Assembly: GCA_964405335.1 (NCBI GenBank)
Contig: CAYONP010000020.1
Coordinates: 2,069 to 66,068, forward strand
DNA from: an uncultured Fimbriimonadaceae bacterium
Lineage (GTDB): Bacteria; Armatimonadota; UBA10988
Direction: 5' to 3'
Length of the DNA: 64,000 nt
In this document: in pieces, positions 32,066 through 62,939 of the stretch
How positions within the stretch are numbered: position 1 is the first letter of the stretch
Layout of the letters: each line of letters opens with the position of its first letter
The notes under the pieces: model-generated
What the model saw: only the letters and a program-made list of their open reading frames with translations
Told to the model about the DNA's origin: nothing
The model's database searches: none
Position numbers and translations under genes: made by a program

Positions 32066-32154
32066 ATCTTTCTCCCCGCATGTCGCCTGTTGCTCTGTAC
32101 AGACGACCCACGGCACTGTCGCTTCATGAGCGAAGCTGCGGCGTCGGGCCTCTT

Positions 32155-33720: not shown

Positions 33721-35619
33721 ATGACCGCACGGGTCGTGCTGCTGGGTCTGGTGTTGGTGCCGCTGCAGGCGTTCTGGACCGTCCACATGGAGCTGGTCCG
33801 CGACGGCATCTTCCCCTCGGTGCTCAGCCTGCTGTTCACCGTCGTCTTCCTGCTCTTCGTCGTCTGCCTGGCCAACCTGGCGGTGCGCCGCGTGGCTCCG
33901 CGGCTGGCGCTGCGCGGCGACGAACTGCTGGCGCTCTACATTGTGCTGGCCGCCGGAGCCAGCCTGACCGGCTGCGACGTCGGCCAGACGCTGGTCCACC
34001 TCGTCGGCGCGCCGTACCGCCTGGCCACGCCCGAGAACGCTTGGTCACTGCACTTCCACCGCTACCTGCCGAGCTTTCTGCACCTCGACGACGCGGCCGT
34101 GCTGGAGGGCTTCTACGAGGGCGCCAGCTCGTTCTATCAGTGGCGCATCACGCGGTTCTGGCTCGGGCCGATCGCCAACTGGATGATCTTCTGCGGCCTG
34201 ATGCTGCTGGCCATGCTGGCGACCAATGTGCTGGTCCGCCGGCAGTGGGTCGAGCACGAGCGGCTGACCTTCCCGATTGTCCAGGTGCCGCTCGGCATGA
34301 CCCTGCAGCCCGGCTTCTGGAGCCACCGCGGGCTCTGGTGGGGCTTCGCCGTCGCGGCGTCGATCGACCTGGTCAACGGCCTCAACGCGCTCGTCCCGTG
34401 GGTGCCGCGGATTCCGTGCAAGCAGTTCATCTTGCTCGGCACCCTGACCAGCAGCAAGCCCTGGACCGCGGTCGGCTGGTGGCCGGTGACGGCCTATCCG
34501 TTCGCCATGGGGATCGGCTTCTTGATGCCGCTGGAGATGAACTTCTCATGCTGGTTCGGCCTGCTGCTGTGGAAGGCGCAGAAGGTCGTCGCGATGCAGC
34601 TCGGCGTCGACACCGGCTGGCTGCAGGCGCTGTACCAGGCCGAGCAGGTCAGCGGCGTCTGGCTGGCGGTGCTGCTCTTCGCCGCCTGGAGCGGCCGGCA
34701 CCACTGGCGCGCGATGTGGCATGGCCTGTGGCGCGGCGAGACCGCCGCCGCGCGGGTCGAGCCGTTCGGCGTGCGGACCTGGGCGGCGCTGGCGGTGGTC
34801 GGCTGGGCGGGGATGATCGTCTTCGGCGCGCGGTCGGGGATGAGCGCCGGCTTCGCCGCCGCCTACTTCACCGTCTACCTCGGCTTTTCGCTGGCGCTGA
34901 CGCGGATGCGGGCAGAGTTCGGCCCGCCCTGCCACGACCTGTTCGGCGCCGGGCCCGACCGGACCTTCATCACCTGGCTCGGCGGCCGCGGCATCGCGCC
35001 GCGCAACCTGGCCTCGACGGCGGTGTTCTACTGGCTCAGCCGCGAATCGCCGCGCAGCCACCCGATGCCACCCCAGCTCGAGAGCCTGTTCCTCGCCTCG
35101 GGCGGCCGGCTCAGCCTGGCTCGCGTCGCGCCGGCCATCTGGCTGTTCGGCTGCCTCAGCGCGCTGGTCACCTTCTGGGCGGTGCTCCACTTCGGCTACG
35201 ACCTGGGCAGCCAGGCCAAGTTCCGCGGCCCGGCCACCTGGTTTGCCAGTGAGGGCTTCAACCGCCTCGACGCCTGGCTGGTCAGCCCGCCCGAGCCGCA
35301 GGCCGGGCCGCGCATCGCCATGGTCGCCGCCTTCGTGCTCAGCCTGCTCTGCCTGGTGCTACGCACGCGCTGGCTCGGCTTCGGCTTCCACCCCGCCGGC
35401 TACGCCATCTCGAGCTGGTGGGCCATCAACCTGCTCTGGTTCCCGCTGCTGATTGCCTGGGCGACCAAGCTGGTCATCTTCCGGTACTTCGGCGGCCGCG
35501 CCTACCGCCACGCCCGGTGGTTCTTCATCGGCCTGATTCTCGGCGAGTTCGTGGTCGGGTCGCTGTGGCAGCTCGCCGCGATGATCTGGCGGACGACGAC
35601 GTACGCGTTTTGGATCTGA
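33721..35619 (+). CDS. large polytopic membrane protein (Trp-rich; possible glycosyltransferase-C-fold or transporter-like), unknown function
   Basis: 632 aa with more than 12 hydrophobic helices. Confidence 0.6.
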
Positions 35620-35671
35620 GCGGCGAGAAGGAGCGCCGCCCGACGCGGCGAACCGACGTTCGCGCGAGGAG

Positions 35672-36655
35672 ATGGTCATGGCCAAGGTGGTGGGTGAGCC
35701 GTTGCCGAACATCCCGTGGGAGGATCGGCCGGCCGGCTCGAGCGAGGTCTGTTGGCGCTACAGCGGTAATCCGGTCATCCCGCGCGATGCTATTCCCTGC
35801 GCCAACAGCATCTTCAACAGCGCGGTGGTGCCCTATCTGGGCGCGTTTGCCGGCGTCTTTCGGATCGATGACCGCGCGCGGCGGATGCAGCTCCACGCCG
35901 GCCGCAGCGCCGATGGCCTGCACTGGGAGCTGGCGCCGGAGCCGATCCAGTTCATCGCCGACGATCCCGACATCGGGCGGTTCGAATACGGCTACGACCC
36001 GCGGGTGGTCTGGCTCGAAGACCGTTACTACGTGACTTGGTGCAACGGCTATCACGGACCGACCATCGGCGCGGCCTACACGCACGACTTCGCCTCGTTC
36101 TACCAGCTCGAGAACGCGACCGTGCCGTACAACCGCAACGGGGTGCTGTTTCCGCGGCGGATCGGCGGCAGCTTCGCCATGCTGCACCGCCCGAGCGACC
36201 GCGGCCACACGCCGTTCGGCGACATCTTCTACAGCGAGAGCCCCGACTTCGTGCACTGGGGCCGTCACCGGCATGTGATGAGCCCCGCGGGCGGCTGGGA
36301 GTCGACCAAGATCGGCGCCGGGCCGATTCCCATCGAGACCGACGAGGGCTGGCTGCTGATCTACCACGGCGTGCTGACGAGCTGCAACGGCTATGTCTAT
36401 AGCGCCGGTGTGGCGCTGCTCGACCTCGAACAGCCCTGGCGGGTGATCGGCCGCGGGAGGTACTACATCCTGAACCCGAGCACGTACTACGAGTGCGTCG
36501 GCGATGTGCCGAACGTCGCCTTCCCCTGCGCCGCGCTGTGCGACGCGCCGAGCGGCCGGCTGGCGATCTACTACGGCGCCGCCGACACCGTTGTGGCGCT
36601 CGCCTTCGCCTACGTCGACGAGCTGATCGACCACCTACGGCGGTACCCGCGCTAA
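35672..36655 (+). CDS. GH130-family glycoside phosphorylase/hydrolase (beta-mannoside phosphorylase-like)
   Basis: 327 aa. GH130/DUF377 five-bladed propeller hallmarks ([42 protein letters not shown]). Confidence 0.8.
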
Positions 36656-42300: not shown

Positions 42301-42506
42301 CGCGGCTGAGCGGTCGCCCGGCGGCATACGTCGCCGACCTCGAAACGCCGCGCCTGCTGGCCCTCGACCCAGCGCGGGTCGATGCGCTCGAGGCACGCGC
42401 CGAGGCGGTGCTGAGCGGCATCCGGCAGGGCGAGTTCGAAGCCCGGCCCGGCGAGGCGACGTGCCGGGTTTGTCCCTACTCGGCGGTCTGCCCGGCGGCG
42501 GTGTAG
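39339..42506 (+). CDS. AddA/UvrD-family ATP-dependent helicase-nuclease
   Basis: 1055 aa. Walker A (ASAGTGKTAML), UvrD motifs (ILVDEAQDVNPTQAELL; TYRQHRP; SIHFAKGLEWPVV) and a C-terminal PD-(D/E)XK (IDRLAGEFVLDYKTGQ). Confidence 0.85.
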   Translation: MRLTPNPEQQAAASHPSSLAVTASAGTGKTAMLVERYLHHLLAGGLRPLQVVAATFTEKAAGELRERVRKRLREELGSADPRLAELDAAPIGTLHSLAARICREHPEAAEVAPGFVILDETEAPIWSRQRVDELLTRLPPERFAGLRWSLARAAVHRLLDEPFVAAQALERVTRPWAEVRAEWATWAAAEREAGLAELTAPPWDETVGFLRSVRGASDDGAEIARQTILDGVELFEAGELRPGLELMASADLRYGRKAAWRCDLAEVKAALKLLCERARKARKDGRATAEVTDLDEHHHSLLQRLRGLVETVGGGLSELKRQAGLLGYADLETGALLALGREDVRRWYAERWQAILVDEAQDVNPTQAELLRRLRDLEPAPTLTAVGDVKQSIYGFRHARPEEFEALGHALGAPHRLSRTYRQHRPLAETLNALFAPVLGEQHAPVESEREPPHPGRYVELAVVAEKASAATGRQAEAAYLAARLTQWLGQLPVHDRQADCVRPLEPRDVAVLSRAWQPLDLFADAFAAAGIPVVHHGGGSLLATREALDGIALLRTLCDPGDRLALAAVLRGPMCAVDDVALDDLARPGDQPWPKRLDGIAAAAWLAELRKMARCEPPSRLLERADELTGYSAVLANLPLAERRLADWRGFIAAVREAERGHLDLFAIVRWLRQLLEAGVELPRPSLEAHDAVSLATIHFAKGLEWPVVIVPDLSRQSRGNDPRLRLDAARGVALDLPLPDDQPQPFLTWLLKANDKQREADELKRLAYVALTRARDRLLLTAGRTSGGSSLLELLSEPLAAAGVTADAIPFDPAAPLPEPTVKPTTGPAPEAVLLERLQTGLDEVVASALDLYERCPRRFWYDQVEGHPGLPVDGEGGEARRIGILVHHALEHGLRSGAELRLQDAAISDDGLQHALALLASWDQHSAFAAVREAAAEPEVEQVGELHGVRLTARIDRLAGEFVLDYKTGQTAVAETHDLQLWAYARLSGRPAAYVADLETPRLLALDPARVDALEARAEAVLSGIRQGEFEARPGEATCRVCPYSAVCPAAV

Positions 42507-44452
42507 AAGACCTGACGCAGCGCCTCGCAGACCGGTTTCGGCCGGCCCTCGACGTCGATCAGCGCGTTGCCGATGGGGCACGGGAAGCAGTCGTGGCCGT
42601 GCCAGATGATGAACCCGCCGCAGGCCGGAAAGCGCTCTTTGTGCCGCGCCGCGGCGAACGCCAAGGCCACCGCCTGCTCGCGTTGCGTCTGCTCGATGTA
42701 GGCCGCCAGCGCCGCTTCGGGCTCGAGGCCGGCAAGGTGCGCAAAGCGGTGTAGCATCAGCCACCAGGCGCTGGAGTGCCGCCACTCGGGCCCGTCGGGT
42801 GGCCACCAGCCGCGCGGCAGGTAGCGGCGGATCACCTCGGCGTCGCAGGCGCCGGGCATGCCGGTTTCACTGCGGAAGAGGGAGTCGTCGCGGCGGAACA
42901 GCTCGAACCAGCCCTCCAGGTCGGCGGCGCCGCCGATGCCCCACGGGCCGTGGACGCAATGGTGCAGGCCGCTGCCCACCGTCTCGAGCGAGGCGCTGAA
43001 GCGCGGGCCGTAGGCCGAGGTGGGCAGGAACCGGCGGCCCGGATCGTCGCGCTCGACCACCGCCGCCAGCGCGGCCAGGCAGGGGTGGCTCAGGTCGCAC
43101 GGCACGCCGCCGCCGGTCTTCGAGCCGGGGCCGGACGACTGCAGCTCGTTGCCGCCACACCACATCAGCAGGCTGGCATGGTGCGCACGCCGCGTGATGT
43201 AACTGCCGGCGATGCGCTCCAGCTCGGCGATGGCGGCCGGCTGCTCGGGCGGCCAGTTGTCGATGCCCGAGGACGACAGGGGGAACTCCTGCCAGACCAG
43301 GATCCCGGCCTCGTCGCAGGCATCATAGAACGACTCGGGCGGCAGGTAGGCGCCGCCCCAGACGCGCAGCACGTTGCAGCCCATGTCGCGATAGAGCGCC
43401 ACCCGCTGGCGATAGTCGGCCGCCGTGGTGTCCGGGTAGGCCACTCGGACCGGCGACCAATTGGCCCCCTGCAGAAACGTCGGCGTGCCGTTGACCTCGC
43501 AGATCCAGGGCAGCGCATCGGCCGGCGCGCCGTCGCAGGGCAACCAGCGCACGCGCTTGAAGCCAACGCGGCGGGTGGCCGACCAGAGCACCTGATCCGA
43601 CTCGTCGATCACGTCGACGTCGAGCCGGTAGAGCTTCTGCGCGCCGGCCAGGTTGGGTTGCCACGGTGTCACCGCACCGGGCTCGAGACGGACCTCGTTG
43701 ACCCCCTCGCCGATCGGCAAGACCAGCATCTGCAGCAACGAATCGCCGTCGTAGAGCGCGGCGCTGACCCGCCGCAGGCGGCGATCGGCGGCCGGCCGGT
43801 GCTCCAGTCGCAGGTGCACCGTGCCCGTCGCCAGGTCGTCGGCCAGCTCGGTCCGCACCGGGCCGAGGTGCAGTTCGGCGGCCGCGCCGGTGAGCAGCCG
43901 CAGCCCGCCGACCACGCCGATCGGCACGAACCGCGCACACCAATCCCAGGAGAAGTTGTAACGCGGCTTGAAGTAACGCGACCGCGAGGTGTAGCCGATC
44001 TGGCCCTGCTCCTCGGGCGGCGTGTCGAAGACGATGCTGAGCCAGTGCTCGGCGCCGTCGCCGAGTTGCTCGGTCAGATCGAACCGCTGCGGCGTCAACG
44101 CGCCCGACCAGCTCGCGACCTCGCGGCCGTCGACCAGAACCCAGCCCGCGTAATCGAGCCCCTCGGCCGCCAGCACGATGGGCTCATCGTGCGGCGCGGT
44201 GAGCCGGCAGACCAACTCCCAGTGCCGGTGCTCGACCCACTCGCAGGCGAGCGAGTTGAGGCCGACCAGCCAGTCTTCGATCCGCCCGGCGCGACGCAGC
44301 GCCTCCTGCACGGTGCCGGGCACCACCGCGTCGACCGGGCCGACGTCGAAGCCGATGCCCTGACCCGTCTCCATCGATGCGCGCAGCCGCCACGAGTACG
44401 GCCGCCAGCCCTGCCACTGCCAGTCCAGGTCGTTCAGCTCAATCGCCGACAT
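42476..44452 (-). CDS. GH2-family glycoside hydrolase (beta-mannosidase-like)
   Basis: N-terminal sugar-binding jelly-roll, Ig-like beta-sandwich and TIM barrel with WCGGNE acid/base motif. Start at the internal ATG (MSAIELNDLDWQW). Confidence 0.7.
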   Translation of the reverse strand: MSAIELNDLDWQWQGWRPYSWRLRASMETGQGIGFDVGPVDAVVPGTVQEALRRAGRIEDWLVGLNSLACEWVEHRHWELVCRLTAPHDEPIVLAAEGLDYAGWVLVDGREVASWSGALTPQRFDLTEQLGDGAEHWLSIVFDTPPEEQGQIGYTSRSRYFKPRYNFSWDWCARFVPIGVVGGLRLLTGAAAELHLGPVRTELADDLATGTVHLRLEHRPAADRRLRRVSAALYDGDSLLQMLVLPIGEGVNEVRLEPGAVTPWQPNLAGAQKLYRLDVDVIDESDQVLWSATRRVGFKRVRWLPCDGAPADALPWICEVNGTPTFLQGANWSPVRVAYPDTTAADYRQRVALYRDMGCNVLRVWGGAYLPPESFYDACDEAGILVWQEFPLSSSGIDNWPPEQPAAIAELERIAGSYITRRAHHASLLMWCGGNELQSSGPGSKTGGGVPCDLSHPCLAALAAVVERDDPGRRFLPTSAYGPRFSASLETVGSGLHHCVHGPWGIGGAADLEGWFELFRRDDSLFRSETGMPGACDAEVIRRYLPRGWWPPDGPEWRHSSAWWLMLHRFAHLAGLEPEAALAAYIEQTQREQAVALAFAAARHKERFPACGGFIIWHGHDCFPCPIGNALIDVEGRPKPVCEALRQVFYTAAGQTAE

Positions 44453-44585
44453 GCCAATCCCCGCCGCATTATCGCAGGCTGCGGCCACGCCATCCAGCAT
44501 CGCCACGGTGGCAATGGACGCCGGCGCCCCGGCGACACAGAATACTGGGCATGCTGGGCCGGTCGCCGTACCTGGAGCGACAGTG

Positions 44586-45368
44586 ATGGGTTGGGAGGAG
44601 CCGGACAGCTCCGGCGCCGCGCGTCATCTGCTGTGGACCGGGGGGTGGGACTCGACCTACCGTCTGCTCGAGCTGCTCTACGTCCACGGCCGCGAGGTAC
44701 AGCCGCACTACATCCTCGACGAAGACCGGCAGTCGTTGCGCCATGAGCTGCGCACGATGGCGCAGATCCGCGGCCGGCTTGCCCAACAGCCGGGCCTGCC
44801 GCGCCTGCATCCGACGCGGTTCATCGCGCGCTGCGACGTGGCGCCCGACGAGGCAATCACCGCGGCCTTCCACCGCCTGCGGCAGCGCGGACACCTCGGC
44901 TCGCAGTACCACTGGCTCGCCCGCTACGCCGCGCAGATGGCCGGTCTGCCACTCGAGCTCGGGTTCGTCAACGGGCCGATTGGCGACTTCGACATCCGGC
45001 CCTTCATCGTCGAGCGCGAGGTGGACGGCGAGGCCTGTCTGGTCCTCGGTGAGCCGGACGACCCGGACCTGCGCATCTTCGAGCGTTTCCGCTGCCCGCT
45101 GATCCGGCTCGATAAGCCGACCTTACGCACCGAGGCGCGGCGGCACGGCTTCGCCGACCTGCTCGAGCAGTCGTGGTTCTGTCACCGGCCGACCAGCGCG
45201 GGTCGCCCCTGCGGTCTGTGCGGACCCTGCCGCACCGCGGTCGAGCTGGGCATGGCCGACCGACTGCCCGCCAGCGCGCACCTTCGGCGCCGGCTCTACG
45301 ACCTGGCGGCCTATCCGGTCCGACGGCTGCGGCGGTTGACCGCATCGGCGGTGCCTCATCTGGCATGA
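44586..45368 (+). CDS. QueC-like PP-loop ATPase paralog 1 (7-cyano-7-deazaguanine synthase family, divergent)
   Basis: PP-loop LLWTGGWDSTY aligns with queC LMSGGMDSCV. C-terminal PLIRLDKP...EQSWFCHRPTSAGRPCGLCGPCR aligns with queC PLIRLSKA...TWSCYQAEELACGVCDSCR (Cys4 zinc site). Confidence 0.7.
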   Translation: MGWEEPDSSGAARHLLWTGGWDSTYRLLELLYVHGREVQPHYILDEDRQSLRHELRTMAQIRGRLAQQPGLPRLHPTRFIARCDVAPDEAITAAFHRLRQRGHLGSQYHWLARYAAQMAGLPLELGFVNGPIGDFDIRPFIVEREVDGEACLVLGEPDDPDLRIFERFRCPLIRLDKPTLRTEARRHGFADLLEQSWFCHRPTSAGRPCGLCGPCRTAVELGMADRLPASAHLRRRLYDLAAYPVRRLRRLTASAVPHLA

Positions 45369-45429
45369 CGAGGAGAGTGAGTCACCGGCCGGGCATACGA
45401 TTTGCAGTTCGCCACCTAGCTACGCCGCT

Positions 45430-46557
45430 GTGGGCGAATGGCCGGAGGCGAACATGGCGCGAAGGGGAATGGGCATCGCTCGCGGTCTGCGGCGGCGAGC
45501 CAGAGCTGTCGCCGAGACGCGCGCCATGCTGGCCCATCCGGCTGCTGCCGCGGGGTACTACTCGGAGCTGCCGCGCAAGTCGCGAGCCCGCATCCTGGTA
45601 GACCTGTACGGCTTTGCCTTGCGCTACGGCGAACTCGACCTGCTGTACCTACCCAGTGGCCGCGACACGACCGACCCGGCGCAGACGGCCAGGTACCTGC
45701 CCAATCCCGAGTTTCGCCGCCTGCGCCGGCGGCTCAACCACCGAGCCAGTTGGCCCACCGGCTTCGACGCCCAGATCGTGTCTGAAGACAAGGCGATCGC
45801 CGACTGGATCCTCACCGCGCTTGGCCTGCCTCACCCGCAGACGGACGGTTGCCTCTCAGGCGGCGACTACTATGACCGGGCAGGCGCTGCTCATCCGATT
45901 GAGGAGCTGACGAACCTGCTGCCTGCCGAGTGGGACGGGCTGTGCAAGCCGCTCGGTGGCATGTGTGGCGCCGGCATCCACTCGCTCAAGACCTGTGGCG
46001 ACACGCTGCTGCTCGACGGCGAGCCGTTGGCACCGGTCGCACTCGCCGAGCGACTGCGCGGGCCACAACTGCTGCAGGGGCGTGTGCAGCAGCATGTTGC
46101 CTACGCCGCGCTACATGCGACGTCGGTCAACACGCTGCGGCTGGTGACCGAACAGGCGACTGGTGAGGCACGGCTACTGAGCGCAGCGCTGCGCGTCGGC
46201 TGCGGGGGCAAGCTGGTCGACAACTGGGCCGCCGGTGGTCTGATCATCCGAGTCGACCCGGCCTCGGGTACCCTCGGTCGGCACGGCTTTCGCAAGCCCG
46301 GCTACGGCGGTCGGTACGACAGGCACCCGGACAGTGGCATCGGCTTCGAGGGGTATGAGCTGCCGTTCGCTCGCGAAGCGATCGAGCTGGTGCTCCGTGG
46401 GCAGCGGCGATTGCACTGCTTCGGCTCGATCGGCTGGGACATCGCGGTCACGCCGGACGGGCCGCTGGTCCTGGAGTTCAACCACGACTGGGATGGCGGC
46501 ATCCCAATGGTCCTGGAGCCGGACTTCGCCACCACGTTGAGGACCTTGGCCGGTTGA
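45430..46557 (+). CDS. ATP-grasp family ligase (sugar-transfer-associated ATP-grasp-like)
   Basis: C-terminal ATP-grasp catalytic region (GWDIAVTPDGPLVLEFN) and a central Gly-rich loop. Inserted between QueC-like paralogs 1 and 2. Confidence 0.6.
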   Translation: MGEWPEANMARRGMGIARGLRRRARAVAETRAMLAHPAAAAGYYSELPRKSRARILVDLYGFALRYGELDLLYLPSGRDTTDPAQTARYLPNPEFRRLRRRLNHRASWPTGFDAQIVSEDKAIADWILTALGLPHPQTDGCLSGGDYYDRAGAAHPIEELTNLLPAEWDGLCKPLGGMCGAGIHSLKTCGDTLLLDGEPLAPVALAERLRGPQLLQGRVQQHVAYAALHATSVNTLRLVTEQATGEARLLSAALRVGCGGKLVDNWAAGGLIIRVDPASGTLGRHGFRKPGYGGRYDRHPDSGIGFEGYELPFAREAIELVLRGQRRLHCFGSIGWDIAVTPDGPLVLEFNHDWDGGIPMVLEPDFATTLRTLAG

Positions 46558-46683
46558 CGATCAGCTCGGGCTGTGGTCGGCCGGCGCGAATCCGAGCCCA
46601 ACGGACCCGCTTGACAGGTGACTCCTGTGGCACCAGACTGATCGGACCGCGCGGTGATGCGGACGCCGGTCTCGGAGCGGCGA

Positions 46684-47433
46684 ATGGTCGGGGCAGGGAC
46701 GGACGGGTTGGCCGTTCACCTCCTCTGGACCGGGGGCTGGGACTCGACTTACCGCCTGCTCGAACTGCTGCTCGCCGGACGGGCGATCCAGCCGCACTAC
46801 ATCCTCGATGACGACCGGCTCTCGCTCGGCCACGAGTTGCGTACCATGGCCCGTATCCGCCAGCACCTGGCCGCGTGGCCGGGACTGCCCTGCCTGCACC
46901 CGACGCGGTTCGTCGCCAAGACGGAAATCGCCCCTCAGCCGGAGATCACCGCCGCCTTCCGCCGCCTGCGCACCGCTGGTCACCTCGGCTCGCAGTACCA
47001 TTGGCTGGCGCGCTATGCCGCCCAGCTCGAGGGCACGCCGCTCGAGCTGTGCATCGACAACGGCCCGCTCGGCGTCCACGACCTGCGACCGTGGACCATC
47101 GAGCGGAGTGACGGCGAGGTGACCTGGTGGGAGCTCGAACCGGCAATCGAGGGCGACCTGCGCCTGTTCCTGTCCTTCCGGCTGCCGTTGATCCACGTCG
47201 ACAAGCCGGCGATGCGCCGCCGCGCGCAAGAGCTCGGCTTTGACGAGCTGCTGGAGCAGACCTGGTTCTGCCACCAGCCGACCCGGCGCGGCCGGCCGTG
47301 CGGTCGCTGCGTGCCCTGCCGGGTGGCGGTCGAAACGGGGCTGGGTGACCGGGTGCCGGCGATCGCGCGCGCTCGTCGGACCGCCGGCGATATGGTGCGC
47401 CGGTGGGCTAGACGGGCACGGGTAGCCGGTTAA
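46684..47433 (+). CDS. QueC-like PP-loop ATPase paralog 2
   Basis: Roughly 65% identical to paralog 1 (HLLWTGGWDSTYRLLELL, GHLGSQYHWLARYAAQ, WFCHQPTRRGRPCGRCVPCR). Weak TTGACA-like box upstream at ~46611. Confidence 0.7.
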   Translation: MVGAGTDGLAVHLLWTGGWDSTYRLLELLLAGRAIQPHYILDDDRLSLGHELRTMARIRQHLAAWPGLPCLHPTRFVAKTEIAPQPEITAAFRRLRTAGHLGSQYHWLARYAAQLEGTPLELCIDNGPLGVHDLRPWTIERSDGEVTWWELEPAIEGDLRLFLSFRLPLIHVDKPAMRRRAQELGFDELLEQTWFCHQPTRRGRPCGRCVPCRVAVETGLGDRVPAIARARRTAGDMVRRWARRARVAG

Positions 47434-47489
47434 GACGCAGGCGTCGTGGCCGATGCCATCTCCGTGGAAGGGCGCATGGAGTTTGCATC

Positions 47490-48260
47490 GTGACACAGTC
47501 TGGGAGCCAGCGACGGACGAGGCAGGTGCTCTGGTCGGGCGGCTGGGACTCCTCGTACCGGGTCATGGAGCTCGTGCTGGTCCTGGGCTACGATGTCCAG
47601 CCGCACTACATCCTCGACGACGTGCGTGACTCGCTGCTGTTCGAGCTGCGCGCCATGAATGAGCTGCGCCGCGAGATCAACCGGCGATCGACGACCGGCG
47701 CCCAGCTGCTGCCAACCAGCTACACCGGTCGCTACGAGATCGCCGCCGACGCCGAGATCAGTGGGTCGATCCGAGACCTCCAGCGGGTGTCGCACATCAG
47801 CGGCCAGTACGACTACCTGGCGCGATATGCCAAGCAACTCGGCACGCACGAGCTGGAGATGGGCTTGGTCGACGGCACGATGGGGGAGTGGGACATTCGG
47901 CCGTTGATTGTCGAACGTCGCGAGGATGACGACGTCTGGTACGAGTTCGACCCAGCACGGATGGACCACGAACTGGCTGTCTTCGCCTGGTTCCGCTACC
48001 CGATCATCCGGCACCACAAACGCTCTCTGCTCGATCGGGCCCGGACGTTCGGCTTCGCCGACCTGCTGGCCGGCAGCAGTTGGACCTGCCACCGGCCGAC
48101 GCGCCGCGGCCAGGCATGTGGGCGGTGCATCCCGTGTCGCTTTCTGCGCGAGTGCGGACTGGGCCGCCAGATGCCCTGGACGTCGCGCCTGGTCGGCTTG
48201 GCGCGCGACCTGGCCGCCGCGGCGCTACCCACGCGGCCGGTCCATCGCCGCCTGCACTGA
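47490..48260 (+). CDS. QueC-like PP-loop ATPase paralog 3
   Basis: VLWSGGWDSSYRVMEL, QPHYILDD, SGQYDYLARYAKQ, WTCHRPTRRGQACGRCIPCR. More divergent, roughly 40% to paralogs 1 and 2. Confidence 0.7.
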   Translation: MTQSGSQRRTRQVLWSGGWDSSYRVMELVLVLGYDVQPHYILDDVRDSLLFELRAMNELRREINRRSTTGAQLLPTSYTGRYEIAADAEISGSIRDLQRVSHISGQYDYLARYAKQLGTHELEMGLVDGTMGEWDIRPLIVERREDDDVWYEFDPARMDHELAVFAWFRYPIIRHHKRSLLDRARTFGFADLLAGSSWTCHRPTRRGQACGRCIPCRFLRECGLGRQMPWTSRLVGLARDLAAAALPTRPVHRRLH

Positions 48261-48304: not shown

Positions 48305-49357
48305 ATGGCCGATCGCGACATCATCTTCGAGGCGGCGCGGCTCCACTTCGAGGAAGGGCTCAAGCAGGACGAGGTGGCCCAGCGCCTGAAGGTCTCACGC
48401 CCGACCGCGGCGCGCTACCTGGCCATGGCCCGCGAGATGGGTTACGTCAAGATCCGCGTGCTCGAGCCGCAGAGCCACGCCTTCCTGCACGACCTCGAAG
48501 TCGAGCTGTGCGAGCGGTTCCCCAAGCTGCGCGAGGCGCTGCTCACCCCCTCGCGGCCCGAGACCGCCGTCGCCGGCCACCCCACCGCGCGACGCGCCGT
48601 GGTCGACGAGCTGGCCGAGCGCGCGGCGAGCCGGGTCGATCAGCTGCTGACCAGCCAGCGACGCCGCAGCGCGCCGGTGGTCGCCGTCGCGCGGGGGGAG
48701 ATGATCGACGCGGTGATCCGGCGGATCAAGCCGAGCCGGCCGGTGCCCGAGCTGGAAGTCCTGCCCATGCTCGGCTACCTGCGCAGCCGCGACTATCCTT
48801 ACGACGCCAATCGGCTGGCGCAGGAGCTGGCCCGCATCTACGCCGGCGACTATGAGTGGATCCCCGCCCCCGCCGTGGTCACCGCCGACGAGGCGGCCGT
48901 GCTGCGCGCCATGCCGCTGGTCGCCGAGCCGTTGCGCAAGCTCGAAGACGATGTCGACCTCGTGTTGACCAGCATCTCCTGCCCCTACTTCACCCGCCAG
49001 AACGGCGAGCGGGCGATGCGCGAGCAGACGCTGCTGCAGTCCGAGCGGGTGACCCGCGAACAGATTGCCGAGCTGGTCGACCGCGAGCGCGTGGTGGGCG
49101 AGATCTGCGGCTGGTACTTCAGCGCCGGCAAGCTCGTCGAACCGCCCGGCATCACCGTCCTCGGCCTGCCCCTGGCCGTCCTGCAACGCAAGGCCGCGAT
49201 GCCCGAGGTGGCGGTGATCGGCGTCGCCGGCGGCGACGCCGACCGCCTGGCGGCCATCGACGCGGCGCTGCACCTCGGGCTGATCAACATCCTGGTCACC
49301 GACTACCTGACCGCCCACCGCCTGCTCGATCGCGCGCGGCACGACGGAGAGAGCTGA
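48305..49357 (+). CDS. SorC/CggR-family sugar-binding transcriptional regulator
   Basis: N-terminal HTH (LKQDEVAQRLKVSRPTAARYL) and C-terminal sugar-phosphate-binding domain. Confidence 0.65.
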   Translation: MADRDIIFEAARLHFEEGLKQDEVAQRLKVSRPTAARYLAMAREMGYVKIRVLEPQSHAFLHDLEVELCERFPKLREALLTPSRPETAVAGHPTARRAVVDELAERAASRVDQLLTSQRRRSAPVVAVARGEMIDAVIRRIKPSRPVPELEVLPMLGYLRSRDYPYDANRLAQELARIYAGDYEWIPAPAVVTADEAAVLRAMPLVAEPLRKLEDDVDLVLTSISCPYFTRQNGERAMREQTLLQSERVTREQIAELVDRERVVGEICGWYFSAGKLVEPPGITVLGLPLAVLQRKAAMPEVAVIGVAGGDADRLAAIDAALHLGLINILVTDYLTAHRLLDRARHDGES

Positions 49358-49358
49358 G

Positions 49359-50408
49359 ATGACCAGCAGCCCGCTGCTCGAGCACCTCGGCGCGGCCGAG
49401 ACCATCGACCTGGCCGGCTGGCGGATTGCCGCGCACTACGGCGAACCGGCCGCCGAAGTCGCCGCCGTGCACCGGGCCGCCGGCCTGATCGACCGCGGCG
49501 AGCGGGGCCGGATCGCGGTGCTTGGCGAGGCGCGGTGCGACTGGCTGAACAAGATCGTCAGCAACGACACCTCGCGGCTGGCGCCGGGCGACGGGCTGCG
49601 GGCGCTGCTGCTGACCGTCAAGGGGCGCATCGGCTGTGACCTGCGGGTCTACGCCCTGGCCGACCGCCTCCTGGTCGACACGGCTTTCGACACCGCCGAG
49701 GGCCTGCTCGAGAACCTGCGCCGCTTCCGGCTCTATGGCGACGCCATCGAGCTGCGCGACCTGCGGCCGGAGACCTGCCAACTCGGCCTGCACGGCCCCG
49801 CAGCGGCCAGGCTGGCGAGTGAGGTGAGTGGTCTCGACGCCGCCTCGATCGAGCGCTACGGCTGCATCGAGAGCGACGGGCTGCTGCTGGTCCGTCACGA
49901 TGAGTTCGGCGAGCCGGGATACGACCTGATCGCGCCGGTCGACCGCGGCCCGGCGCTGTGGGCAACGCTCTCGGCGGAGGCGCAGCCGTTCGGATGGCTG
50001 GCGGCCGAAATCATGCGCGTCGAGGCGGGCGAGCCGCGCTGGGGAGCCGAGCTGAACGGCGACCACTTCCCGCTCGAAGCCGAGCTCGAAGAGGCGTTGA
50101 GCCACACCAAGGGCTGCTACCCGGGCCAGGAGGTGGTCGCCCGGATGCGCGACCGCGGTCATCCGAACAAGCTGCTGCGCCCGCTTGCCGTCGCCGGCGA
50201 CAAGGTGCCCGTCCGCGGCGCCCACGTGCTGGCCCGCGACGAGCCGAAGCCGGTGGGCACCATCTACAGCGCCGTCGCCTCGCCGACGCTGGGGGTCCGC
50301 GCCCTGGCCTACCTCAAGACCGAGTGCGCCGAGCCGGGCACCACACTGTTCGCCGTGGTCGACGGCCCGCCGGCGAAGGCCACGGTGCTCGCGCGGCCGG
50401 CGCGCTAG
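49359..50408 (+). CDS. YgfZ/GcvT-like folate-binding protein
   Basis: Aminomethyltransferase-fold motifs (DLAGWRIAAHYG; KGCYPGQEVVARM). Confidence 0.7.
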   Translation: MTSSPLLEHLGAAETIDLAGWRIAAHYGEPAAEVAAVHRAAGLIDRGERGRIAVLGEARCDWLNKIVSNDTSRLAPGDGLRALLLTVKGRIGCDLRVYALADRLLVDTAFDTAEGLLENLRRFRLYGDAIELRDLRPETCQLGLHGPAAARLASEVSGLDAASIERYGCIESDGLLLVRHDEFGEPGYDLIAPVDRGPALWATLSAEAQPFGWLAAEIMRVEAGEPRWGAELNGDHFPLEAELEEALSHTKGCYPGQEVVARMRDRGHPNKLLRPLAVAGDKVPVRGAHVLARDEPKPVGTIYSAVASPTLGVRALAYLKTECAEPGTTLFAVVDGPPAKATVLARPAR

Positions 50409-51340: not shown

Positions 51341-52084
51341 TCATCGCCCCTCGTCCGTGCCGCGCCGAGCACGGGGCCAGAGCAGACGATGTAGTTGGAG
51401 CTGCAACGTTACTTCCAGTCGCTGTTCCATGATCCAGCTCGCGAGCTGGCCTGGCAGCGGCCAGGCGTTCAGGTCGCCGGTGAACGCCAGCGGCGTGGCC
51501 GGGCTCAAGGCACAGCGCACGCCCGGCCTGGGCGGGTGCTCGGCCAGCGCCGCGGCCGCCCAGTCGAAGTCGGCCCGATCGGCGATCACGATCTTCAGGT
51601 CGTCGAGCCCCGGCCGAAGCAACGGCACGTTCGGCCAGAGGTTATCCGCCACGTGGCCGCTCGACGGCGCTTTGAGGTCCATCACCACCCGCACGCGCGG
51701 GTCAAGGCCGACGATGCTCAGGCTGCCCGAGGTCTCGAGCAGAACCTCGTGGCCGGCCTCGCACAGCGCCACCAGCAGGTCGCGACAGGCCGGCTGCAGC
51801 AGCGGCTCGCCGCCGGTCACCTCGACCAGCGTGACGCCGTCGGCCTGGTCGACCAGCTCGCCGAGCGTCATCGCACGCCGCTCATCGGGCCCGAACAGGC
51901 CGGGCTTCCAGGTGTAGGGCGTGTCGCACCAGGGGCAGCTCAGGTGACAGCCGGCCAGGCGGATGAACCAACAGACCCGGCCCGCGTCGGCGCCCTCGCC
52001 CTGCAGGCTGAGGTAGACCTCGCTGACCGACAACGTCCGGTCGAGGTCGACCGGGCCGGCGATCTGCTCGGCCGGCCGGCTCAT
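51341..52084 (-). CDS. queE: 7-carboxy-7-deazaguanine synthase (radical SAM)
   Basis: QueE-type cluster motif CHLSCPWCDTPYT and the EVTGGEPLLQ SAM-binding motif. Confidence 0.85.
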   Translation of the reverse strand: MSRPAEQIAGPVDLDRTLSVSEVYLSLQGEGADAGRVCWFIRLAGCHLSCPWCDTPYTWKPGLFGPDERRAMTLGELVDQADGVTLVEVTGGEPLLQPACRDLLVALCEAGHEVLLETSGSLSIVGLDPRVRVVMDLKAPSSGHVADNLWPNVPLLRPGLDDLKIVIADRADFDWAAAALAEHPPRPGVRCALSPATPLAFTGDLNAWPLPGQLASWIMEQRLEVTLQLQLHRLLWPRARRGTDEGR

Positions 52085-52764
52085 CGGGCCGGCTCGGCAT
52101 AGGCCAGCGGGTCGGCCACGCCGGCCCGGGCAAAGCCGCGCAGCCGCAGGCGGCAGCTATCGCACACGCCGCAGGCCAGCTCCTCGGCCTGGTAGCAGCT
52201 CCAGGTCAGGTGCAGCGGCGCGCCGAGCTCGACCCCGCGGGCTACGATCTGCGCCTTGCTCAGCCGGATCAGCGGGGTGATGATCCGCGGGTCGGGCGAT
52301 TCGTCGTGGTTGCCCTCGGCAAGGGCCGCCTCCATCGCGTCGCAGAAGCTGCGGCGGCAGTCGGGGTAGCCGGACGAATCCTCCTCGACCATGCCGGTCC
52401 AGATGCTCTCCGCGCGCAGCACCTCGGCCCAGGCGGCGGCGATGAAGAGCAGATTGCCGTTGCGCTGCGGCACGTAGGTCACCGGGATGCCCGGCCGATC
52501 GAGGTCTTCGCCGGCGGGCACGGCGAGGCCGGCATCGGTCAGCGCCGAGCCGCCGAAGGCGCGCAAGTGGGCGATGTCGACGGTCTGCCGCCGGCCGATG
52601 CCGAGCGCGTCGCAGACGTCGGCGAAGGCGCGCTGCTCGCGCTGCTCGGTGCGCTGGCCATAGGTGATGTGCAGGGCCGCGACGTCGTGCCCCTCGCGCA
52701 GCGCCAGCGCGGCGGTGACGCAGCTATCCATGCCGCCCGACATGAGCACCACCGCCAGGGGCAT
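52081..52764 (-). CDS. queC: 7-cyano-7-deazaguanine synthase
   Basis: PP-loop SGGMDS and C-terminal CYQAEELACGVCDSCRLR zinc site. Overlaps queE by 4 bp. Confidence 0.9.
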   Translation of the reverse strand: MPLAVVLMSGGMDSCVTAALALREGHDVAALHITYGQRTEQREQRAFADVCDALGIGRRQTVDIAHLRAFGGSALTDAGLAVPAGEDLDRPGIPVTYVPQRNGNLLFIAAAWAEVLRAESIWTGMVEEDSSGYPDCRRSFCDAMEAALAEGNHDESPDPRIITPLIRLSKAQIVARGVELGAPLHLTWSCYQAEELACGVCDSCRLRLRGFARAGVADPLAYAEPAR

Positions 52765-55008: not shown

Positions 55009-56034
55009 ATGACCCACCGTGAACGACAACTGGCCGCCATCCGGCACCAAGTCGCCGATCGCGTGCCGGTCGACTGCATCTGCATCGAGCCGATCGAGGC
55101 CATCGCCGCGCACCTCGGCATCGCGCCCGAGGCGGTCCACGACGCGCTCGGGATCGACGGCCGACTGGTCGCCCCCGCCTGGCTCGGCGAGCCGCGCGTT
55201 GGACTCGACGGTCAGCCGCTCAGCGCCTGGGGCACCGTGCCGAGTGGCGACTACGGCACCGCGCGCTGGGCCCCGCTCGCCGGCGCCACCAGCATCGCCG
55301 AGGTCGAGCGGCACCGCCTGCCCGACCCGGCCGAGTTCGACTACGCCGGCGCCGCCCGCCGCGCCGCCGACATGGCCGACTACGCCGTGCGCGGGCCCTA
55401 CTGGTTGCCGCTCTTCTGCGGCGTCTGCGACCTGTTCGGCATGGAGCGCGCGCTGCTCCACCTGGCGCTCGAGCCGAGGCTGTTCGAAGCGGCCCTCGAG
55501 CGCATCTTCGCCGTCGTCCACGAGGTCTGCCGCCGACTGCTCGAAGCCAGTGGCGAGGCGCTGCCGATCCTCTGCCTCGGCGACGACTTCGCCACCCAGC
55601 GCGGGCTGATGATGTCACCGGCGGTCTGGCGGCGCTACCTGCTGCCGCGCTATGCGGCGCTGTTCGAGCTGGCCCGGCAGCGCGGGCGGTCCGTCTGGTT
55701 CCACTCTTGCGGCGACATCACGGCGGTGCTGCCCGACCTGATCGAGGCGGGCATGGACGTCTGGGAGACGGTCCAGCTCGACACGCTGCCGCTCGGCGCC
55801 ACCGACCTCAAGCGCGAGTACGGCCGCGACCTGTGCTTCTTCGGCGGCATCAGCACCCAGCGTCTGCCCTACCTGACGCCGGACCAGGTGCGAACCGAGA
55901 CCCGCCGCTGCCTAGAGCGGCTCGGCGCCGGCGGCGGCTACATCTGCGGTCCCGACCACCACCTGAAGCCCGACGTGCCGCCGGCGAACGCGGTGGCGTT
56001 GTTTGGTGAGGCGGTGGGGTTTGGGGGGATGTAG
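55009..56034 (+). CDS. uroporphyrinogen decarboxylase (URO-D) family protein, second paralog
   Basis: 341 aa. URO-D fold (PVDCICIEP; VWFHSCGD), distantly similar to the 30067..31068 paralog. Confidence 0.7.
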   Translation: MTHRERQLAAIRHQVADRVPVDCICIEPIEAIAAHLGIAPEAVHDALGIDGRLVAPAWLGEPRVGLDGQPLSAWGTVPSGDYGTARWAPLAGATSIAEVERHRLPDPAEFDYAGAARRAADMADYAVRGPYWLPLFCGVCDLFGMERALLHLALEPRLFEAALERIFAVVHEVCRRLLEASGEALPILCLGDDFATQRGLMMSPAVWRRYLLPRYAALFELARQRGRSVWFHSCGDITAVLPDLIEAGMDVWETVQLDTLPLGATDLKREYGRDLCFFGGISTQRLPYLTPDQVRTETRRCLERLGAGGGYICGPDHHLKPDVPPANAVALFGEAVGFGGM

Positions 56035-58206: not shown

Positions 58207-58416
58207 TTACGCCGCCACCTCGAATCGCAGGACGATCAACTCCTCGCTCGGCACCGCCAGCATCGCGTAGGTCCGCCCGTCGTCGTCGCTGAACTCGACC
58301 ACCGTGCCGACCTGACCACGGCGGAGCCCGGCCGACTGCTGGTCGGTCAGCAATGCCACCGCCTCGAGCAGCCGTATCTCGGCAGTGCGCATCGCCTCAG
58401 ATGATCTCCAGCTCAT
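58207..58416 (-). CDS. DUF4926-like small protein
   Basis: 69 aa. GQVGTVVEF...YAMLAV matches the DUF4926 SH3-like small-protein pattern. Overlaps the upstream GH172 gene start by 20 bp. Confidence 0.45.
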   Translation of the reverse strand: MSWRSSEAMRTAEIRLLEAVALLTDQQSAGLRRGQVGTVVEFSDDDGRTYAMLAVPSEELIVLRFEVAA

Positions 58417-59494
58417 CCGCCGACGGCAGCGCCGGGAACGGCGCGGTCGGCAGCACCTGGTACCAATAGGCCACGCTCGCCAGATCGTCCTGCAGCGGCA
58501 GGTAGCGCCCGCCGGCGCGCCAGCCGAGGGCCTGGATGGTCACCCGCAGGTCGGTCTGGAAGCGGATCGGGTCGGTGATGTGCCAGCGGTACTGCCCGAA
58601 CCGTATCTGGCTGTTCCACAGCTTGTCTGGCAGGTGCACCTCGGGCATGCCGGTGTACGGACTGCTGAACGGCACGTAGGCGTTGTCGACCACGTAGCAG
58701 TAGGCGCCGCAGAAGTAATCTTCGGTGCCGGTACCACAGATGGTCGGATAGTCGGTGTCGCCGTCCATGAAGAACTTGATCTCGCCCTCGCCCCACCAGC
58801 CGGTGTTGTTGCTCCCCCAGGCCAGGTAGGTGCCGACGTAGTGGCCCTGGCCGCGAAGGCCGTCGACGATGGTGTAGTCGGTCTGGAAGGGCAGTGGGTT
58901 GGTCCGCCGGAACTGGGCGTGGAAGTAAGCCGCGTCGTCGCGCACCGGGCCGAGCGCGTAGTCGACCTGGTAGTAGAGCGTCATCTTCCCTTCGCCAGGC
59001 TTGAAGCTCACCTGGTCGGCCAGGTTGGTCATCGTGATCCGGCAGCGCCGGCGGAACGGCATCGGCCAGTAGCAGTTGAACCCGTTGCGGGGATTGACGC
59101 AGACGGCCAGGCTGTTGACCTGCGCATACTTGCCCCAGCCCTGGGCGAAGAAGTCGCCGACGGGCACCTCGACCGATGGATGCTCCTGATCATCCCAGTA
59201 GAAGCGGAGGATCGACCAGCGGTAGTTGCCGGTCGGCGTCATCCAGATGTGCTGGATCGCGCCGGGCCCTTCGATGTCGGCGAGCACGAACTCGGTGCCC
59301 GGCTCGATCACCACCGAGGGGCTGATCTTCCAGCCCTGGCCCAGGTCGCGCGCGCAGCCGGCGCCGGTGCCCTCGGTGGCCATGCCGCCGGCACCCTTGG
59401 CACCGGTGAAGTTCTCCGGGCTGGCCGAGCGCGTCTGAGCGTCGCTCAACCGGTACAGCGTGCCGAGGTCCACCGCGAGGCCGTCGAATCCCAT
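58397..59494 (-). CDS. GH172 / DUF2961 family glycoside hydrolase
   Basis: 365 aa. DUF2961 jelly-roll hallmarks (GPGAIQHIWMT, RFYWDDQ, GTGTEDYFCGAY). Confidence 0.75.
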   Translation of the reverse strand: MGFDGLAVDLGTLYRLSDAQTRSASPENFTGAKGAGGMATEGTGAGCARDLGQGWKISPSVVIEPGTEFVLADIEGPGAIQHIWMTPTGNYRWSILRFYWDDQEHPSVEVPVGDFFAQGWGKYAQVNSLAVCVNPRNGFNCYWPMPFRRRCRITMTNLADQVSFKPGEGKMTLYYQVDYALGPVRDDAAYFHAQFRRTNPLPFQTDYTIVDGLRGQGHYVGTYLAWGSNNTGWWGEGEIKFFMDGDTDYPTICGTGTEDYFCGAYCYVVDNAYVPFSSPYTGMPEVHLPDKLWNSQIRFGQYRWHITDPIRFQTDLRVTIQALGWRAGGRYLPLQDDLASVAYWYQVLPTAPFPALPSADELEII

Positions 59495-59572
59495 GCGTCA
59501 CTCCTTGCCGGCGGGGCGGTTCGGCGTGGCTGGGGCAAGGCCTCCCAGAATCGCGCCGCCAGAGGGCGCCAG

Positions 59573-61917: not shown

Positions 61918-62655
61918 TCAGTCGTAACCGATGGCGGTGGTGACGGTGCCGCCGAGGACGCCGTCGCAGTCGTAGTCGAGGTCGTTCTTGGCCGGCGCCC
62001 AGACGAAGTTGGCGTTGGCCAGCCGGTTCGGGTCGCTGATCCCGCCGAGCCACTTGACGTGGCCGTCGACGAAGCCGTAGTTGGCGCCCTCGTTATGCCG
62101 GTCGGCGCGGATGCAGCCCGAGGTGTTGCCGGCCCAGGTGCTGCCGACCACGGCTGGGTTGCTCAACTGCCGGCCGTCGGCCCAGGGGAAGGCGCCGGTC
62201 GGGACGATGTAGCAGATGGCCTGCTGGAACGGCGGCGTCGGCGCGGAGTTGGTGCCCTGTACGTCGGCGAAGCAGGGCGACTGCGCCGGGAGCGGGATTT
62301 CGGCCAACGAACGGCCGTTGCTGCCCATCGGGAAGTTGTAGCCGACGCTCAGCCAGACCCGCGTGGACGGGCAGGCCATGACCTGCTGGTTCTTCAGGTA
62401 GGGCTGCACCAGCTCGGTCCAGCGGAAGCCCCAGGCACCCGAGCCGCCGGTGGCCGAGTAGGGGATCACCCGCTCATCGTAGTCCTGGATGTATTGGATC
62501 AGGGAGAGCGTGAGCTGCTTGACGTTGCTCGAGCAGCTCGACTGGCGCGCCTTCTCCCGCGCCTTGGCGAAGACCGGGAAGAGGATGGCGGCGAGGATGG
62601 CGATGATCGCAATCACGACCAGCAGCTCGATCAGAGTAAACGCGCGTCGTCTCAT
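61918..62655 (-). CDS. prepilin-type N-terminal cleavage/methylation domain protein with DUF1559 (H-X9-G) domain
   Basis: [22 protein letters not shown] pseudopilin leader. C-terminal [14 protein letters not shown] is the DUF1559 signature massively expanded in Planctomycetota. Confidence 0.8.
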
Positions 62656-62939
62656 GCTTGGATCCTCCACGCAAAACACAGCCCGAAACGCACCACGACA
62701 CGGCGCGCGCCGGGGCTAGTGAACTATACGAACCACCGGGCCGCGGAGTTCAACGCCCACGGCCTGTGCATCGATTTTGCCACGGGTGTGGGTCGCCTTC
62801 ACGCCGAGTGGCGTTGGTTGACGCGAAAGTGAGACCGCGGGCGACCGCTGGCGGCCAAGGACACCTCGCCGCGCCGGCGAACGCCGGCTGTGGCACGTTG
62901 ATCGCGGCCGGCCGGCGAATAACGTGCGCGGGGCGGGGT

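Follow-up and report, generated by a model that had tools for sequence, protein, structure and literature searches.

Three QueC-related PP-loop paralogs and an ATP-grasp ligase as a candidate amide-forming module in a Fimbriimonadaceae genome

A 64-kb stretch of DNA from an uncultured Fimbriimonadaceae bacterium (contig CAYONP010000020.1; the whole stretch is called the window here) carries at positions 44586-48260 three tandem genes for PP-loop ATPases, with a gene for an ATP-grasp ligase between the first and the second. To judge from their sequences the three paralogs are not orthologues of QueC. The PP-loop family of which they are members is distinct and has no name, and it is called FAM below; in unrelated phyla genes of this family recur beside ATP-grasp amidoligase genes. 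The recurrent context is surface-polysaccharide or capsule biosynthesis, a possibility that a preliminary description of the sequence had not raised. By analogy with characterized relatives, the module most likely makes amide-linked decorations on a cell-surface polymer or a metabolite, and a link to queuosine synthesis is not evident. The four genes of the module are separated by gaps of about 60-125 bp:

44586-45368, + strand: FAM paralog 1 (P1), 260 aa by open reading frame (ORF) call; PP-loop ATPase of the unnamed LLWTGGWDS family
45430-46557, + strand: ATP-grasp ligase, 375 aa as the maximal ORF; PF14397 (ATPgrasp_ST)
46654-47433, + strand: FAM paralog 2 (P2), 259 aa from GTG 46654 or 249 aa from ATG 46684
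47490-48260, + strand: FAM paralog 3 (P3), 256 aa; the most divergent copy, reading WSGGWDSSY

All four genes are intact and under purifying selection. Compared with their orthologues in the syntenic metagenomic locus L008, a relative at 81-88% identity, they have ratios of nonsynonymous to synonymous substitution rates (dN/dS) of 0.18 (P1), 0.23 (ATP-grasp), 0.19 (P2) and 0.19 (P3), values that indicate functional rather than decaying genes; the ATP-grasp orthologue in L008 is 81% identical. The ligase is a clear match to PF14397 (128.7 bits against a cutoff of 31.4, E 3e-37, profile positions 19-260 of 278), and its homologues carry the name 'sugar-transfer associated ATP-grasp'. The ORF calls and this match bear out the preliminary description, which had recognized three paralogs interleaved with an ATP-grasp gene; the order of the genes is kept in L008 and in a second metagenomic locus, L005. 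The same description had put the identities among the paralogs at about 65% and 40%. BLASTP gives slightly different values, 62% for P2 and P1 (E 5e-101) and 42% for P2 and P3 (E 3e-62), and agrees that the paralogs are much closer to one another than to the queC of the window, with whose product P2 aligns only locally, over 47 C-terminal residues (38%, E 5e-5).

The ATG of P1 is preceded by GGAG, 9-12 nt upstream. The public protein P0001, which is 100% identical to P2, is called as 249 aa from ATG 46684, and FAM residues are numbered from that codon of P2. The public call for the ATP-grasp gene begins at 45526 (343 aa); conservation with L008 of residues encoded upstream of that position suggests that the true start lies near 45454-45469. 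Scans for promoters and terminators found no signal of an operon boundary, and PADLOC and NCBIfam scans of the module proteins gave no match for the paralogs or the ATP-grasp.

A distinct family of PP-loop proteins

Members of FAM share the signature LLW(T/S)GGWDS(T/S)(Y/F) ... Y..D..R.S...E ... GxQY.WL ... K ... W(F)CH.P...G.PCG.C.PC, which is followed by a strongly basic tail. In an alignment of 34 diverse homologues 17 residues are invariant, among them the P-loop, one lysine and four cysteines: W15, G18, W19, D20, S21, Y39, R45, E51, Q104, K174, C196, P199, C206, G207, C209, C212 and G219. P1, P2 and P3 each keep all 17, and on this basis three active enzymes are predicted rather than one enzyme accompanied by scaffolds. 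All three have the W(T/S)GGWDS(T/S)Y loop and four C-terminal cysteines. The zinc site proposed in the preliminary description is present, but its cysteines are spaced C-x9-C-x2-C-x2-C (in the form C-H-x-P-x6-C-G-x-C-x-P-C) and not with the x10 first given. The basic tail at the C-terminus runs to 33 residues (median) and carries a net charge of +9 (median), against about 0 in the rest of the protein.

The canonical QueC signature consists of SGGxDS, YxQxHxxE, VPxRN, YPDC, a conserved lysine and C(x)8CxxCxxC, and mutagenesis has shown Y35 (in Escherichia coli), R99 and Y131 to be essential (PMC13329287, a 2026 survey of the QueC superfamily). In the three paralogs the PP-loop is present as the variant (T/S)GGWDS, with G18, D20 and S21 invariant across the 34 aligned members, and the zinc motif is present with its x9 spacing and an invariant upstream lysine, K174. 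Where QueC has YxQxHxxE the paralogs read Y-x-x-D-x-x-R-x-S-x-x-x-E; in the profile alignment with QueC only the arginine and the serine line up at this motif, and the tyrosine, glutamine and histidine are not kept. VPxRN and YPDC are likewise absent from the paralogs, whose aligned positions read LGSQYHWLARY and show no YPDC, whereas the queC product of the window carries both VPQRN and YPDC. FAM matches none of the ten clusters defined in the superfamily survey (PMC13329287).

The Pfam QueC model (PF06508) gives 17.3, 27.3 and 23.8 bits for P1, P2 and P3 against a cutoff of 22, the match being confined to the last ~50 residues (profile positions 154-204 of 210). TIGR00364 (QueC) and NF041925 (QatC) do not match the paralogs, nor does any NCBIfam model at E<0.01. 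For contrast, the genuine queC product of the window reaches 227 bits (2e-67) with PF06508 and 172 bits with TIGR00364. The label 'QueC-like' given to the paralogs in the preliminary description thus holds for the type of PP-loop protein and is marginal by sequence.

An AlphaFold2 model of P2 (pLDDT, the predicted local distance difference test score, 93.4) has a Rossmann-like fold with an N-terminal PP-loop that follows strand 1, which places the protein in the PP-loop ATP pyrophosphatase superfamily (adenine nucleotide alpha-hydrolase fold). Its best PDB matches in Foldseek are MnmA/TrmU at the top, QueC (3BL5), Cap9 (9NTO) and QatC (9Y02), with template modelling scores of 0.4-0.6 and a probability of 1.0 for all four; ThiI, GMP synthetase and NAD synthetase rank lower. 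When the FAM profile was searched against all PDB sequences, QueC alone was found, at an E of about 1e-3; the match runs over the P-loop and over the 'PL..L.K ... C ... CG.C..C' segment. Profile and model together indicate that QueC is the nearest known relative of FAM, but a distant one.

The family is sizeable. A profile search of 1.84 billion cluster representatives recovered 2138 proteins at E<1e-3, of which 843 lie below 1e-30, and did not recruit canonical QueC, so FAM has definite bounds and stays separate from canonical QueC. When 185,579 species genomes were scanned for the LWTGGWDS signature, 377 confirmed loci were found, none of them closer than 46% to the window protein. They come from Gammaproteobacteria, Bacillaceae, Bacteroidota, Acidobacteriota, Nitrospinota, Verrucomicrobiota, Planctomycetota, Synergistota, Chloroflexota and one Bathyarchaeia metagenome-assembled genome (MAG). 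FAM relatives occur in only 5 of 2.9 million viral contigs (L096-L100, from IMG/VR); three of these relatives are ~30% identical, on contigs of 28-145 kb. Most FAM members score below the Pfam QueC cutoff, a precomputed PF06508 match is present on only about 28% of the FAM homologues listed, and a few members are publicly named '7-cyano-7-deazaguanine synthase'. Cultured halophilic carriers include Halobacillus, Kushneria, Halomonas, Larsenimonas, Ectothiorhodospira and Thioalkalivibrio. Parapedobacter deserti, Pontibacter vulgaris, Halobacillus species and Zooshikella are carriers in culture that are open to genetics.

FAM is an undescribed family with a signature of its own; the components of the module fall into known superfamilies. 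Literature searches on QueC-like proteins together with ATP-grasp, on PF14397/ATPgrasp_ST and on QueC in polysaccharide clusters yielded nothing about FAM, and no earlier description of the FAM/ATP-grasp amidoligase pairing, or of the convergent tandem amplification described below, turned up in the literature searched.

Genomic context of FAM genes

Gene neighbourhoods were compared across 80 distant FAM loci, with simple ORF calls and with only the most frequent Pfam families reported. An ATP-grasp gene of the ATPgrasp_ST (PF14397) or TupA-like (PF14305) type lies within 6 kb of FAM in 12 of the 80 and is directly adjacent in 10, an adjacency with P of about 8e-7 if placement among ~12 neighbouring genes is assumed to be random. 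The ends of the FAM and ATP-grasp genes overlap or abut in L022 and L084. The pairing of FAM with an ATP-grasp gene thus recurs in unrelated phyla, and L010 and L084 hold arrays analogous to that of the window. Other types of ligase also stand beside FAM, namely Mur-ligase-like (L035) and CapK-like (L019, L034, L041) proteins. Gene orders in some of these loci, with glycosyltransferase families abbreviated GT, are as follows:

L010, Synergistales: EamA, TupA, FAM, FAM, FAM, TupA, GT1
L084, Prolixibacteraceae: AsnB-like amidotransferase, three FAM genes, TupA
L078, Parapedobacter deserti KCTC 52416: GT2, ATPgrasp_ST, FAM, GT1
L041, Planctomycetaceae: deacetylase-like, CapK-like, FAM, ATPgrasp_ST ... 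PGA_cap
L057, Kiritimatiellae: FAM, ATPgrasp_ST, polysaccharide pyruvyl transferase
L035, Tichowtungia: WecA-like, FAM, Mur-ligase-like, FAM

Both among the genes immediately next to FAM and across the 15 most informative loci, GT1 (8 and 10 members, respectively), GT2, Glyco_trans_1_2 and WecA-type GT4 rank as the commonest families; flippases, PGA_cap (4), pyruvyl transferase and epimerases are also among the commonest. No family of the que genes, tRNA-guanine transglycosylase (TGT) or GTP cyclohydrolase is among the enriched neighbours. Homologues of queC or queE within 10 kb of FAM were found in none of the 80 distant loci and were seen only in the close relatives L005 and L008. A cassette of three Glyco_trans_1_2 genes and a methyltransferase gene lies upstream of a FAM array in Pontibacter (L003 1-3510), and in a Steroidobacteraceae contig (L093 1-3903) a matching cassette precedes an ATPgrasp_ST gene that stands alone, which hints that FAM and ATPgrasp_ST can each separately serve one kind of glycan pathway.

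Two to four FAM copies are present in 10 of the 80 loci. The closest relative of an array copy is usually another copy of the same array (orthologues in sister genomes aside), which indicates independent expansions in about eight lineages, several of them to three or four copies. In protein P0121 (517 aa), from the search of cluster representatives, two complete FAM units are fused head to tail, both with an intact P-loop and cysteine motif, an arrangement that suggests dimers or hetero-oligomers as the working form of FAM. A second composite protein, P0234 (568 aa), consists of a FAM unit and a C-terminal domain of ~300 aa without a Pfam match that ends in a motif reminiscent of ATP-grasp proteins (…YGELDVLRDLDDYRIYIIDVNNTP); neither BLASTP against the window ligase nor a Pfam scan at E<=1 supported reading this domain as an ATP-grasp.

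The genes around the module in the window are:

42476-44506, - strand: GH2 glycosidase, the upstream flank of the module
48305-50408: SorC/DeoR-type regulator, then GcvT/YgfZ-like folate-binding protein, the next two genes after P3
51341-52084, strand opposite to the module: queE, beside queC
52081-52764, strand opposite to the module: queC (PF06508 2e-67, TIGR00364 172 bits)

The queC-queE pair noted in the preliminary description is thus genuine and lies 3-4 kb downstream of the module on the other strand; the interval between the module and queE holds four genes unrelated to them, of which two are encoded on that other strand. L005 (~99% identical to the window) and L008 (81-95%) have the same order of GH2 on the - strand, P1, ATP-grasp, P2, P3, SorC and GcvT-like genes, continued on the other strand by genes for a metallophosphoesterase, YjbQ, queE and queC.

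The identities given earlier for the SorC-type regulator and the YgfZ/GcvT-like protein are confirmed, but their inclusion in the system is not. SorC homologues at ~70% identity come from Fimbriimonadaceae/Armatimonadetes (Armatimonadota) MAGs. In two such relatives (L091 9001-11151 and L092 9001-11151) the SorC-GcvT pair is kept as a unit, without FAM or ATP-grasp, and follows a divergent gene for a GFO/IDH/MocA oxidoreductase; in a third (L090) SorC stands alone. Since the pair is conserved without the module, the module is best regarded as an accessory insertion and the SorC and YgfZ/GcvT genes as bystanders, and they were rejected as module members. In this Armatimonadota-like lineage the four-gene module would have been inserted between the GH2 gene and the conserved SorC-GcvT pair. 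GC content at third codon positions, 0.82-0.87 in the module genes and 0.90-0.96 in the flanking genes, also speaks for its accessory nature.

The rest of the window holds glycoside hydrolases and housekeeping genes. Features of the window outside the module and its immediate flanks include:

16765-19617: rhamnosidase
30055-31068: URO-D-like (uroporphyrinogen decarboxylase family) protein
31226-32116, - strand: TIR_2-domain protein (PF13676, 7.8e-9)
32155-33123, - strand: adjacent 322-aa ORF without a Pfam match
35585-36655: GH130 glycoside hydrolase
55009-56034: second URO-D-like protein
58397-59497: DUF2961 glycoside hydrolase
61918-62715, - strand: protein with a prepilin-type N-terminal methylation motif and DUF1559

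The DUF1559 prepilin-type protein and the SorC homologues at ~70% identity point to an Armatimonadota origin of the window. The two URO-D-like genes stand among the glycoside hydrolase genes, and L091 has a URO-D gene near its SorC pair; the URO-D genes of the window and of L091 are probably not haem-related. Positions 31226-33123, with the TIR_2 gene, form the sole low-GC stretch of the window (0.61 against ~0.71) and may be a small, horizontally acquired defence island. No Rfam family at gathering thresholds and no tRNA was found in the 64 kb, including no preQ1 riboswitch near queC/queE or the module.

Possible functions of the module

The reading tentatively favoured here, with a confidence that falls somewhat below even, is that of a carboxylate-adenylating, amide-forming module that would act on a carboxylate-bearing surface polymer or its precursor. 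PP-loop enzymes of the QueC branch activate a carboxylate by adenylation and transfer its acyl group to nitrogen: in QueC the acceptor is ammonia, and the resulting amide is afterwards dehydrated to a nitrile, whereas in Cap9 and QatC the acceptor is a protein N-terminus (PMC13329287). By analogy each FAM protein would form an acyl adenylate (R-COOH + ATP -> R-CO-AMP + PPi), from which ammonia or an amine would take up the acyl group to give an amide. ATP-grasp enzymes make amides by way of acyl-phosphates. A TupA-like domain, Cj1438C of Campylobacter jejuni, amidates the C6 carboxylate of glucuronate in the capsule (PMC11800379), and ATPgrasp_ST may, like it, form a further amide bond, via an acyl-phosphate. 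The most likely target would be a cell-surface polymer or its lipid- or nucleotide-linked precursor, whose carboxylate might belong to a uronic acid, a pyruvyl ketal or an appended amino acid. As to stoichiometry, the three paralogs might serve different carboxylates or amines, or form a hetero-oligomer. The basic tail would suit docking on the membrane, the site of lipid-linked intermediates, or on a polyanionic polymer. It would suit nucleic-acid binding equally well, and RNA modification is kept, at low weight, among the alternatives for that reason.

Several observations weigh against this reading. No gene for a glycosyltransferase, a flippase or sugar-nucleotide synthesis is present in the whole window, so that a surface-polymer target here would be extrapolated from other phyla. 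In about 65 of the 80 distant loci FAM is a solitary gene with heterogeneous neighbours, and the closest ATPgrasp_ST homologues outside the lineage of the window have no FAM nearby; the linkage of FAM and ATP-grasp, recurrent and tight where present, is accordingly facultative. EamA exporters and an SNF transporter beside some arrays would suit a small-molecule product equally well. No biochemical characterization of any FAM or PF14397 member was found in the literature searched.

The strongest alternative, although an unlikely one, is that the product is a soluble small molecule, cytoplasmic or exported: an osmolyte, a secondary metabolite or an amidated metabolite of amino-acid or peptide-like type, for instance. 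A peptide or amide bond would then be made by the ATP-grasp, and carboxylates would be amidated, or ligated further, by the FAM proteins. The osmolyte N-acetylglutaminylglutamine amide is made by an ATP-grasp-type ligase together with an amidotransferase, a precedent that counts for such a pathway, and so do the window without polysaccharide genes, the EamA-type exporters that flank the arrays in L010 and L086 and the single FAM gene in L017, the SNF symporter gene inside the L039/L085 array, and the many halophiles among cultured carriers. In the halophilic gammaproteobacteria, however, FAM genes are solitary and have no conserved partners, and a check of halophile loci for a conserved context of the osmolyte type found none. 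The recognizable contexts are dominated by glycosyltransferase, flippase, WecA-like and PGA_cap genes, and a soluble pathway would have no need of the basic C-terminal tail.

A 7-deazapurine pathway, the angle raised in the preliminary description, is improbable. FAM would here take 7-carboxy-7-deazaguanine from the neighbouring QueE and derivatize it or conjugate it to an amine, in the manner of Cap9 and QatC. QueC is indeed the nearest known relative by profile and fold, and the queE-queC pair lies within 3-4 kb in an arrangement kept in L005 and L008; this proximity, in one lineage, is the only positive support. Loss of the QueC substrate motifs is not decisive, since QatC also lacks YxQxHxxE, VPxRN and YPDC and yet uses deazaguanine (PMC13329287). 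Against such a pathway stand the 80 distant loci, none with queC or queE within 10 kb, which deprive the proximity of the meaning first attached to it, and the enriched neighbours, which include no que, TGT or GTP cyclohydrolase families. Nor does the window contain a preQ1 riboswitch or any other Rfam match; the four unrelated genes mentioned above stand between the module and queE, and the SorC-GcvT relatives show that the neighbourhood has been reshuffled between lineages.

Marginally less credible still is modification of tRNA or rRNA by a PP-loop enzyme of the MnmA, TilS or TtcA type, with the tail binding RNA. MnmA/TrmU is the top Foldseek match, the tail has a median net charge of +9, many FAM genes are solitary among housekeeping neighbours, and genes for an RlmI-like methyltransferase or a pseudouridine synthase lie near FAM in a few loci. 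But a rare and patchy distribution (377 loci in 185,579 species genomes), lineage-specific tandem expansion and tight adjacency to ATP-grasp amidoligase and glycosyltransferase genes are all atypical of RNA-modification enzymes, as is the lack in FAM of a domain that binds RNA, such as THUMP or PUA.

Anti-phage defence of the Qat kind or that of a type IV cyclic-oligonucleotide-based antiphage signalling system (CBASS), built on a QueC-like ligase, is very improbable: the FAM model has QatC and Cap9 among its structural neighbours and a TIR-domain gene lies 12 kb upstream of the module, but no module protein has a PADLOC match, NF041925 (QatC) does not match, QatA, QatB, QatD, CD-NTase and Cap10 were found neither beside the module nor among the enriched neighbour families of the 80 loci, and FAM is all but missing from viral contigs (5 of 2.9 million). 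The earlier statement that no defence partner is present thus holds. That the paralogs are redundant or decaying extra copies of a 7-cyano-7-deazaguanine (preQ0) synthase, to which some public '7-cyano-7-deazaguanine synthase' annotations of family members would point, is the least probable explanation of all, given dN/dS values of 0.18-0.19, retention of every invariant residue, no TIGR00364 match, the absence of QueC catalytic motifs essential by mutagenesis and a canonical queC already in the window. Such labels on FAM members would mislead reconstructions of the queuosine pathway.

Because the ATP-grasp pairing recurs and defence partners are lacking, an uncharacterized ATP-dependent amide-forming pathway, as the preliminary description had it, is a fair reading of the module, and that interpretation is as a whole partly supported. 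A bolder and doubtful extension would make FAM a hitherto unrecognized class of glycan- or polymer-tailoring enzymes in which QueC-type adenylation installs amide (conceivably amidine or nitrile) groups together with ATP-grasp amidoligases, arrays of three or four catalytically intact copies acting as a hetero-oligomer or a stepwise 'mini assembly line' for multi-amide decoration. For many amide-type surface-polymer decorations we know of no enzyme identified so far, and the repeated adjacency of FAM to ATP-grasp genes in capsule and exopolysaccharide loci points to an enzymatic step in decoration of this type.

Relation to known systems

QueC (PF06508 cluster 1, TIGR00364; PDB 3BL5 and 2PG3) resembles FAM in its PP-loop Rossmann-type fold of ~220-260 aa, its N-terminal xGGxDS loop, the lysine in 'PL..L.K' and the four-cysteine zinc motif C-x(8-9)-C-x2-C-x2-C. 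It differs in having YxQxHxxE, VPxRN and YPDC, which FAM lacks, whereas FAM has invariant residues of its own (W15, W19, Y39, R45, E51 and Q104, with Y105 nearly invariant), a histidine after the first cysteine and the +9 basic tail. The similarity reaches only an E of about 1e-3, and there is no linkage to que genes outside the lineage of the window.

Cap9 of type IV CBASS and QatC of QatABCD are QueC-family ligases that deazaguanylate proteins. They share with FAM a QueC-related scaffold, turned in their case from nitrile synthesis to ATP-dependent amide ligation and in FAM, by analogy, perhaps likewise, and both (9nto_B and 9y02_B) are structural neighbours of the FAM model. FAM differs from them in having neither defence partners nor a PADLOC or NCBIfam match, and its conserved motifs differ from those given for clusters 2 and 9 (PMC13329287). 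Recent work has shown that phage defence reuses the QueC scaffold for protein-nucleobase conjugation; FAM adds a sizeable further branch, with about 850-2100 sequence clusters, that spans many phyla of bacteria and reaches at least one MAG of an archaeon.

The N-acetyl-sugar amidotransferases of the WbpG/PseA type (survey cluster 5) are, like FAM, PP-loop enzymes of surface-polysaccharide loci, and their P-loop variant SGGxDSxY resembles the TGGWDS(T)Y/F of FAM. Members of cluster 5 have a CxxC(x)6CxC cysteine motif, a motif order reversed relative to QueC and lengths of 300-400 aa (PMC13329287); the cysteine motif of FAM differs from this in form and position, and FAM has no NCBIfam match at E<0.01.

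For the ligase, the literature search found no description of a PF14397 member or of an ATP-grasp paired with a QueC-like PP-loop enzyme. The window ligase is a clear PF14397 (ST-type) member, and the related TupA-like (PF14305) amidoligases hold the same position beside FAM arrays in other phyla. Among TupA-like and ST-type ligases it is the TupA-like Cj1438C alone that has a demonstrated activity, the amidation of glucuronate at C6.

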